Assembly (NCBI GenBank): GCA_034780895.1
Contig: JAUZTB010000001.1
Location: 90,298,589 to 90,362,131, forward strand
Source: Rhynchobatus australiae
Taxonomy: Eukaryota
Direction of reading: 5' to 3'
Length of the DNA stretch: 63,543 nt
Positions 7,324 to 32,314 of this stretch are shown one piece after another. The notes under the pieces are model-generated. The model saw nothing but the letters and a program-made list of their open reading frames with translations, did no database searches and was not told where the DNA came from. Numbering within the stretch: position 1 is the stretch's first letter; every line of letters starts with the position of its first letter. The translations under genes and the position numbers were made by a program.

Positions 7324-7820
<497 letters not shown>

Positions 7821-9864: not shown

Positions 9865-10086
9865 AACAATCTGATGAAGGATCTCAGCAGGTCAGGCAGC
9901 ATCTGTGAGGGGGGAGGAATTTCCAGGGTTTCAGGTCCAATATTGTCAGGGTTTCAGGACTGATGTAAGGTTTGGACCCAAAAGAGACAATTACTTTCCC
10001 TCCAAAGATGCGGCCTGACCTGCTGACTTTCTCCAGCAGATTGTCTACTGCTCCAGATTCCAGCATCTGCAGTCCCTTGCGTCTCC
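9865..10086. mobile_element. Palindromic Penelope pLTR-derived insertion
   Basis: cagcaggtcaggcagcatct versus agatgcggcctgacctgctga; ends ccagcatctgcagtcccttgcgtctcc, same family as 7589-7820. Confidence 0.75.
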
Positions 10087-13440: not shown

Positions 13441-14495
<1,055 letters not shown>

Positions 14496-20052: not shown

Positions 20053-20375
20053 AGTGGCATAGCTAGTAGAGCTGCGCTGAAGCACAGCTGCAGAGACCCA
20101 GGTTTAATTCTGATCTCCGGTGCCGTTTGTGCAGAATTTGCATATTTGCCCTGTGACCATGTGGGCTTTCTCCAGGTGATCCAGTTTCCTCCCACATCCC
20201 AAAAATGTGCAGGTTGATAGGTTAATTGATAGTCTAAATTCCCCCCAGTGTAATATGATTGCTGGAATTAATGGGAATGTGGGGAGAATAGGTTACAAGA
20301 AACATTAGTAGGGGAATGGGATTGCTCCATGAGCTGACATAAACTCAATGTACTGAATGCCCTCATTCTATGTTA
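20053..20375 (+). mobile_element. V-SINE (HE1-like, tRNA-derived head, CR1-type tail)
   Basis: gtggcatagctagtagagc head, V-domain gtgggctttctccaggtgatccagtttcctcccacatcccaaa. Confidence 0.8.
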
Positions 20376-21412
20376 TAAAGAATTATGGAGGTTAAGAAGC
20401 CACTTTCCTAATTTTGTTCTGAAGCAACATTTAACTGCACTGACATATAATCTTAGGAATTAACTTTTACTTTCAAACTTTTCGGCAACCTGGCACATTT
20501 CAAAAATAGTTCTATTCACATAGGAAGCACCATGGCAATGAGTATCTCTATTAGTGACACAACAACAACACAATTTATGTCAAAGCCCAACCTGCTAAAA
20601 AATATTTAAAGATATCAGAACTCCGTAAAGGGTGTAATATCACAGAGGTCAGCCACATTCTTAAAATGCATTGAAGCACTAAAACAACCTTAAGCTCTTC
20701 AGATGCAAGATGGTAATCACTTCTTTCTATGCTTTGTTCACGTATGGCAACATAGAGCCCAACTACTTTTTCAAGGAAATCTGTGATGGAAAAGACTTGT
20801 CTAATTTCTACCTTCCATGATGCTTTTTTATTGTAAATGGTCCTTTCTGTAATAATAACTTTTATTCTAAATGAACTAAAAAGCAATGTTCAAAACAAAA
20901 GAGCATGAGCACTAAGCACTAAAAAATACCATTTAAAAATTCATGTGATTTTTGTTTAAGCATTTTACATCGATCTCCAGTGCAGAAGTACACTGATAAA
21001 AAGAGCCTGCATGAGCGTACAGCATTTACACCTTGCAAAATATTTTGCTAGATTTTCCTTTGAATAAAAATGTTAGAAGAATAAACAAAAGAGATTAAAG
21101 ACATTAATAGGCTGAAAATAGATTTTCAGAATCCACGCTTCAGCCAAAAGGGTGCATCTTTTTGTTTTAAGAAAACACAAAGTAATGGTTCAAACAATGT
21201 TAAAGTCAATGCATTTTCCTAACGTAATTACAAAGTCATTAAAATTATTTTTAAGTAATAAAATCAGCACAAATCTCAAACAATGTACCCTAAATGCAGT
21301 TCATTTAAAGCAGAGAATTACAAAATAGTTGAATATAGGAAATATGACCGACAAGAATAATGCACATACAAAAGAACATATGAATTATATTACTTATTAC
21401 TGAAAGTACAAA

Positions 21413-22033
21413 CAGGAGGGACAATGCAGACAGATTCATGTTGCTCCAAACACACTGTTTCACAGGCCCACGTAAATGTCTGTTATTTCTAGCCTTTGTG
21501 CCCAAATAACACTCTTTTTGGGAAGTATGCTTCGAAGTTATTGCTGTTCAGTCCATCAAGACTAACAACCTTGCTACAAATATTTTTCAGCTGGTTCCAA
21601 AAACTGCAACACAGTTAAGTTATCCTGTAGCTTATGAAAATAAATACATTTATATTTTAATATCATCTTGAAGATATTCAGACAATAAATGGTCTGATAC
21701 TTGGGTTTCAGAGTTTTACTTGCATTTTAAACAATGTAATACAAGTAAAAAAAAACATCTTATTTGTTGGATACCTTCAGTAGATATACCGGATATTATT
21801 TGTTCCTTATTCAAATTCATCCTTCTGTGTTAACTGCCATTCTATTTTGAAAGATTCTCTGCCAATAACCAGTTTTAAGGCAAAGAAGCTGAATTGCAGG
21901 CAATAACTTTGAAGCATTCTTATCAAAAAAGGAGTCTGATTTGAGGACAAAGGCCAAAAATAGCAGACATTTACGTGGGCCTGTGAAACAGTATGTTTAG
22001 TGCAACATGAATGTGTCTGGGTCGTCCCTCCTG
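21413..22033. repeat. Long inverted repeat: arms ~21413-21551 and ~21888-22033, loop ~335 bp
   Basis: Outer ~95 bp align ungapped with 12 mismatches, including a perfect 29-bp stretch actgtttcacaggcccacgtaaatgtctg; gapped similarity continues ~45 bp inward. Confidence 0.92.
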
Positions 22034-22989
22034 CTCTAAAGTCTCACTGTGGTTTCATAAACAGCCAGCAGTTTCCTTTAGGGAAAGAAGTAGTTATAAA
22101 TCATAGATAGTATCACCTTGGGGTCACTCATACACAACTTTTATTACATGTCTTAGAGCAGCTAATTTAATCACATGCTAAAATTGGTAACAAACACTTG
22201 GACAGATGAACTGGACCAATGGCCTACACTACAGCTCAAATGCACTTTTACACATGTATTAGCAATGCAAGTCTAAATGTGTTAGGAATCAAATCCGACT
22301 TCATCAGGGGTATAGACTGTAACAATGGGTCACTTGTTTTATATACATAACAACTAATTTTCAAAGTGGCTTTAATGGAAAGAAAGAAAAATCACAGTGT
22401 ACTTGATGTCAAGCCATCAACTCTTTGTCACGGTGAAATTCATTTCAAACTTGTTTTATCAAAGGTCTCAGAACAAAGTGGCACTCTCCCTTCATTCAGC
22501 TCTACATGTATACACATTCTTCTGATACAGCATCCTTTTGCCATCTAATATATATTCTATTCAAAATCAAGGAACAGCAGACAATGANNNNNNNNNNNNN
22601 NNNNNNNNNNNNNNNNNNNNNNNNNNNNNNNNNNNNNNNNNNNNNNNNNNNNNNNNNNNNNNNNNNNNNNNNNNNNNNNNNNNNNNNAAGGAACAGCAGA
22701 CAATGACAAAACTCCTTTGTAAACAACAAAAATTTAATTAGTTCACAGAGATTTAAAGTATACTTTACATACAGCTCACATTGCAACAGGATGGGTCACT
22801 CAGTAGAGACATGGAGACCATTTCTCCCATTTGATGATTTGTCATCTTAAGGAGAATGCCCATGGAGGAAAAGAAATCTGGTTGTTTAACTAGCATCTAA
22901 ACATTGCTAATTTTAACTAATGACAAAAATTAAAATAACTTACTGACAAATAATAATTTTCCTGCCAGGTTTAAAAGCAGGAATGCCAA

Positions 22990-32065: not shown

Positions 32066-32314
<249 letters not shown>

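Follow-up and report, generated by a model that had tools for sequence, protein, structure and literature searches.

The locus raises the question of why an intron of PCNX1 in the ray Rhynchobatus australiae carries a long, nearly perfect inverted repeat. A preliminary description of this DNA offered two options, a selected RNA structure (editing substrate, splicing regulator or small-RNA source) or a non-autonomous DNA transposon. The window, i.e. the whole stretch of DNA that was analysed, comprises 63,543 nucleotides. As proposed in that description, the host gene is PCNX1, read from the minus strand, which is borne out by homologue searches and exon mapping. Among nine proteins compared its large exon is nearest to Pristis (95.9%), followed by stingrays and mantas (91-92%). 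The mapped exons, with numbers that we assume from human PCNX1, are the following:

55211-53450 and 38393-38264, minus strand: further mapped PCNX1 exons
32101..32285, minus strand: PCNX1 exon 8, upstream of the host intron, skipped together with exon 7 in some isoforms
13478..13559, minus strand: PCNX1 exon 9, downstream of the host intron
8813-8748, 7548/7524-7324 and 4696-4541, minus strand: further mapped PCNX1 exons

The host intron spans 18.5 kb between exons 8 and 9. The repeat stands 10.1 kb away from one end of it and 7.9 kb away from the other, and both arms lie 8-10 kb away from any mapped PCNX1 exon, neither of them being exonic.

Several other features of the gene were observed. 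Annotated PCNX1 isoforms of catshark and basking shark (P0250-P0252) carry an alternative segment in place of exon 8, and two short matches to it, partly diverged in the ray, are found between exons 7 and 8 at 37680-37615 and 36607-36554 (minus strand). The alternative exons of these three shark proteins thus map to the previous intron, at about 37680 and 36607, and do not derive from the host intron. At 7548-7524 (minus strand) paired isoforms of sharks and rays differ by the 5-residue insert LSLPQ, and length differences of five residues recur in frogs and mammals, so that this is a conserved small alternative segment. Exon 9 opens with four residues in coelacanth and tetrapods that are missing from cartilaginous fish (13559-13540). 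A dispersed repeat forms inverted pairs with little space between the copies in PCNX1 introns, at 9866-10044 (56 nt at 79%) and at 7642-7801 (36 nt at 83%), the latter near the 5-residue segment. At 22569-22587/22688-22706 and at 17151-17191/17299-17357 the two sides of a 100-N run are identical to each other, which is typical of scaffold-gap overlaps.

Self-alignment, BLAST and folding all recover the inverted repeat with the proposed stem of about 140 bp at 21413..22033. Its outer block (21413-21519 with 21927-22033) is 107 nt long, ungapped and 86% paired, and beyond a 2-nt bulge it is followed by an inner block of 30 nt (21515-21544 with 21900-21929). BLAST merges both blocks (134 columns, 85%, E 5e-36), and local alignment stretches the arms to about 21551 and 21889, which leaves a spacer of 337 nt. 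Complementary pairs make up 114 of 132, the rest being eight transversion mismatches, six G-U and four A-C (minus strand). The 12 mismatches counted earlier in the outer 95 bp and the perfect run at 21454-21482 are present as claimed. No longer inverted pair occurs anywhere in the window. Run X1 agrees with the window over 21400-21558 and 21814-22030 with zero differences, and in run X10 one contig covers the complete locus; since these independent runs show the same arrangement, the repeat is no assembly artefact.

21889..22033, minus strand: 5' arm in the PCNX1 pre-mRNA, with good pairing from 21900
21552..21888, minus strand: spacer of 337 nt, AT-rich (30% GC), single copy, without annotated exon
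21413..21551, minus strand: 3' arm, with good pairing up to 21544
21454..21482, minus strand: perfect 29-bp run, partner 21964-21992, with several breaks in organism C

Folding places the locus far beyond shuffled sequences on each strand, with -275.8 kcal/mol on the minus strand (z -19.9, 20 shuffles) and -253.3 kcal/mol on the plus strand (z -12.3). The gap of 22 kcal/mol between the whole-strand folds comes from the spacer and flanks; the duplex formed by the arms only has -185.2 kcal/mol on the minus strand versus -183.2 kcal/mol on the plus strand. The eight transitions were earlier described as six G-U and two A-C pairs on the minus strand. The counts are right, but the bias does not hold: six of eight alone gives P=0.14, the G-U to A-C ratio over all 132 pairs is 6:4, and pooled over both lineages it is 9:7-8. 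With the arms-only energies near equal as well, the strand bias was dropped as a sign of selection.

Could the repeat be an orphan relic left by a non-autonomous DNA transposon, one low in copy number and ending in inverted repeats of about 140 bp, with the stem and its editing as by-products? The arm-spacer-arm layout with sharp outer ends is that of a MITE, i.e. inverted repeats at the ends and a short non-coding interior between them. We take the CAG...CTG ends to resemble hAT termini, although the inverted repeats of hAT elements are as a rule much shorter. The arms, with 42-43% GC, stand out from their surroundings (30-36%), but 42% is reached by 21% of the 140-nt windows in this intron. 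When an arm, the complete element or the spacer served as query against the 2.23-Gb genome, this locus alone was returned, at the sensitivity of a word-based search that passes over very common words, a feature which favours the relic. Four arm patterns, allowing 2-3 mismatches, give 2, 4, 1 and 18 matches genome-wide, while the reversed controls give 0, 2, 0 and 5. With 17 matches outside the locus, the terminal pattern yields more than its control (5), but none of the 19 off-locus pattern matches (17 + 2) has the remainder of an arm or an inverted partner beside it. If the patterns are independent, a family arm diverged by 14% would escape all four of them only about 6% of the time, and one diverged by 18% would escape 25% of the time.

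Neither arm pairs with anything else in the window, in line with the earlier remark that they are unlike the repeat families found there. The accompanying remark that the surrounding ~2 kb are free of transposons needs qualification, as a repeat that recurs elsewhere in the window lies 1.2 kb to the left, at 20111-20205. The reported lack of a matching TSD is confirmed; the best exact direct match between the flanks is 5 nt (8 bp would be the length for hAT), and decay could have partly erased a TSD. A single copy and no TSD make a MITE family unlikely. Palindromic DNA elements are known targets of hyper-editing, according to the available text of PMC5625713, which fits a relic; on balance we regard the transposon origin as unlikely, and the proposal of a non-autonomous element is not supported.

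The decay of the repeat was followed in related organisms. Words of the region were found in six organisms (14 runs from 8 studies), and 7 of the 14 runs were compared; the search, which finds near-identical sequence only and covers some runs, returned no distant carriers of the locus. In organisms B, C and E the same locus carries the repeat, and every run compared either has the locus or covers too little of it, so that an empty site was not met. Over 2181 nt, the differences from the window amount to 0 in X1, 63 in X2, 132 in X6 (two overlapping contigs) and 124 in X10; run X11 covers just 37 nt and is uninformative. The differences listed are 40 of 170 in the wide comparison and 40 of 46 in the narrower one.

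Organism C is about 6% diverged from the window. Its arms differ at 23 of 284 positions (8.1%; 22 listed and one assumed to lie in an arm), its spacer at 18 of 337 (5.3%) and its flanks at 87 of 1533 (5.7%), the arms thus changing at least as fast as the flanks (Fisher P 0.20 against the spacer and 0.13 against the flanks), in one pair of organisms and with flanks that may be non-neutral. Paired columns hold 19-20 changes versus 15.0 expected (ratio 1.27-1.33, 95% CI 0.76-2.06), and 14 versus 14.4 when five CpG-linked changes are subtracted. Hence, in this species pair, the stem is not conserved above background, and pair-breaking changes occur at the background rate. The preliminary suggestion of a selected RNA structure therefore survives as to the dsRNA editing substrate and fails as to selection, the arms being no slower than the flanks and the wobble bias not significant. 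As the arms wear away as fast as the surrounding DNA, the repeat is probably an ordinary by-product rather than a selected control element.

Among the window's 18 mismatches, read by hand, nine are perfect pairs in C, eight are common to both and one is a different mismatch. Organism C has no counterpart of the window's 2-nt bulge; private to it are a 6-nt tandem bulge and 6-7 mismatches. The nine positions intact in C, together with the private breaks of C, point to a common ancestor that was about 94% paired, from which each lineage has broken pairs independently. The share of common versus private mismatches puts the age of the repeat, as an ingroup-only estimate, at about twice that of the split between the window and C.

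A compensating double change at 21472/21974, a CpG site, preserves its pair, and a second one at 22024 with 21422, also CpG, may do so if an unlisted G>A falls on 22024. Two such changes would compare with 0.2-0.4 expected (P 0.02-0.05, with few species and both sites CpG). Against neutral decay speak a weak depletion of changes specific to the window lineage in the arms (1 of 29 versus 3.8 expected, P=0.09) and the survival of the repeat through at least 6% divergence without deletion.

Comparison of RNA with DNA for clusters of A-to-G changes, which the preliminary description had named as a check, revealed such a cluster between two unmatched individuals of organism C.

21938..22060, minus strand: extent of contig X14 (organism C, presumed RNA), which departs from DNA run X6 by 6-7 A>G changes on the transcribed strand

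None of the listed runs is recorded as RNA, and X14, like X9, is presumed to be so. It is a single contig of 220 nt, with a depth of 6.3 that may represent one molecule, and its sample and study differ from those of X6. It differs from the window by one A>G, two G>A, one G>C and six T>C. DNA run X6 has nine T>C in all, with just one inside 21938-22060, so that five of those in X14 are RNA-only; these five are not among the differences listed and could fall in the 27 nt outside the arm. One more T>C separates the X6 DNA from the X14 RNA in the 6-nt insertion. At 21974 the DNA (X6) has T and the RNA (X14) has C, which may be a retained ancestral allele. Read on the PCNX1 strand, every RNA-only difference that could be classified (6-7) is thus A>G, one of the 11 differences being unclassified; with a background T>C share of 0.22 (27/123), six such differences have P of about 1e-4. 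X14 is not a chimera of both arms, as the A>G, C>T and G>A differences that the other arm would bring are absent from it.

Hyper-edited reads carry at least four sites and on average 6.62 per read, according to the available text of PMC5625713. The pattern in X14 is thus that of ADAR hyper-editing, and editing of the 5' arm region is likely, though not proven by a single contig, maybe one molecule, from another sample. Two marks of an edited dsRNA are found here, a long stable duplex predicted in a transcribed intron and an A>G cluster in one contig of an unmatched individual; the latter suggests that the arms pair in the cell. Our literature searches on PCNX1 editing, RNA structure and inverted repeats, within the main texts as distinct from supplementary editing tables, found no paper on this locus. 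Of the PCNX family, one paper on A-to-I editing mentions PCNXL2 alone. The searches found no transcriptome-wide study of ADAR hyper-editing in cartilaginous fish.

An edited stem in a gene with variable splicing raises the possibility of a selected, ray-specific structure that tunes splicing, for instance by hiding or presenting an acceptor for a stop-containing exon, with ADAR editing as the switch. One candidate site lies at the base of the stem:

21400..21419, minus strand: putative acceptor-like site whose pyrimidine tract overlaps the stem base, last intron base 21400

By a simple rule it is one of eight in 18.2 kb of the host intron, and its link with the stem was noticed after the fact. 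It is the nearest thing to an exon or used splice site that an arm touches. The stem's shared place in B, C and E, the editing signature, the weak depletion of recent arm changes and the alternatively spliced neighbouring exons (some isoforms of sharks, rays and tetrapods leave out exons 7 and 8) all fit a splicing role. Against it, the paired columns are unconstrained, the bulges of 2 and 6 nt are private to lineages, the duplex energy has no strand preference, and the reading frame that follows the acceptor-like site is shifted in organisms C and E by a 4-nt insertion. A junction screen of 264 proteins, in which poison exons are invisible, found none with a spliced insert from this intron, and neither presumed-RNA contig, X9 or X14, has joints or loose ends, 21400 lying outside both. 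We consider such a selected stem quite unlikely. A variant in which the young duplication was recruited in rays as an ADAR-sensitive switch, so that editing or unwinding would admit the stop-containing exon while duplex length is kept, seems to us very unlikely. Were the acceptor link true, splicing control would have been born from one duplication and maintained by duplex length, not sequence. A role in back-splicing was rejected, since both arms share one intron.

The spacer was inspected as well. X9, from organism D, is a contig of 167 nt that covers 21694-21859, part of the spacer, without loose ends. On the minus strand it begins exactly at CAG, where both flanking bases are A, and this start could be a fragment end, an editing branch or a splice site. 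An 84-nt exon in the spacer, at 21858-21775, is not supported: it has six changes in C and weak sites, and X9 reads through its would-be donor.

A stem so long and nearly perfect might also serve as a source of small RNA, as a pri-miRNA or for endogenous siRNA, and template switching does yield intronic miRNA hairpins. Nonetheless, a stem of about 35 bp is what miRNAs prefer, whereas the ray stem measures 134 bp and its loop 337 nt; the points on template switching and on preferred stem length are those of the available text of bioRxiv 10.1101/2023.04.19.537475. The window has no Rfam match, and the repeat is neither of a known RNA family nor a hairpin of miRNA size. No 22-nt block is conserved, and the 29-bp run is broken in C. 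Hyper-editing would, moreover, oppose small-RNA processing. Such a source is thus most improbable.

What fits best is an explanation absent from the options offered earlier, an unselected inverted duplication. We suggest, with a probability of roughly 70%, that this single-copy repeat arose by one-step local inverted duplication, that its pre-mRNA duplex is likely hyper-edited and that it is likely decaying neutrally. The duplication would have occurred in an ancestor of these rays, judged from the ingroup, by template switching, a known route, or by a repair-linked event, and would have set a near-perfect copy about 340 nt away. In the nascent PCNX1 transcript the arms would pair as it folds, ADAR would edit the duplex, and splicing would discard the stem together with the intron. 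Leaving with the intron, the stem would escape selection against long dsRNA in mature mRNA, which would explain its survival without selection. This agrees with the purging of long duplexes from mRNAs but not from pre-mRNAs, as described in the available text of PMC7006430.

Known systems, compared here through the available text of the papers cited, place the ray repeat among ordinary edited duplexes. The human edited non-repetitive dsRNAs found by dsRNAscan (PMC11838218), 4,597 in number, are also single-copy inverted pairs and not conserved. Their medians (144 bp, 30 contiguous, -185 kcal/mol, 509-nt loop) are close to the values of the ray repeat (134, 29, -185 kcal/mol, loop 337-355 nt), as is the percent paired; unlike them, it belongs to a ray lineage, and its apparent editing comes from one contig. 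Hyper-edited intronic Alu pairs and the palindromic Harbinger of Xenopus (PMC5625713) form the same kind of long, near-perfect pre-mRNA duplex with an A>G cluster, and the 6-7 A>G in about 129 nt found here compare with their average of 6.62 per read. The ray arms, in contrast, belong to no repeat family found, and no cartilaginous fish is named in the text available from that study. Inverted copies made by template switching (bioRxiv 10.1101/2023.04.19.537475; PMC7954356) arise in one step as a perfect reverse complement nearby, often in introns and with no TSD; the ray arms are longer than such miRNA-size hairpins, and their origin is read from the ingroup. With selected duplexes, such as GRIA2 with its exon-complementary sequence and SON (PMC11838218), the ray stem shares that it is a pre-mRNA duplex and appears edited, but its arms are non-exonic, 8-10 kb off exons, and in the one species pair compared show neither sequence constraint nor non-CpG covariation. 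With thousands of such unselected edited duplexes in vertebrate introns, the ray stem is thus ordinary in kind. It is a likely instance of ADAR hyper-editing in cartilaginous fish and a clean single-copy case, whose decay can be traced pair by pair across rays.
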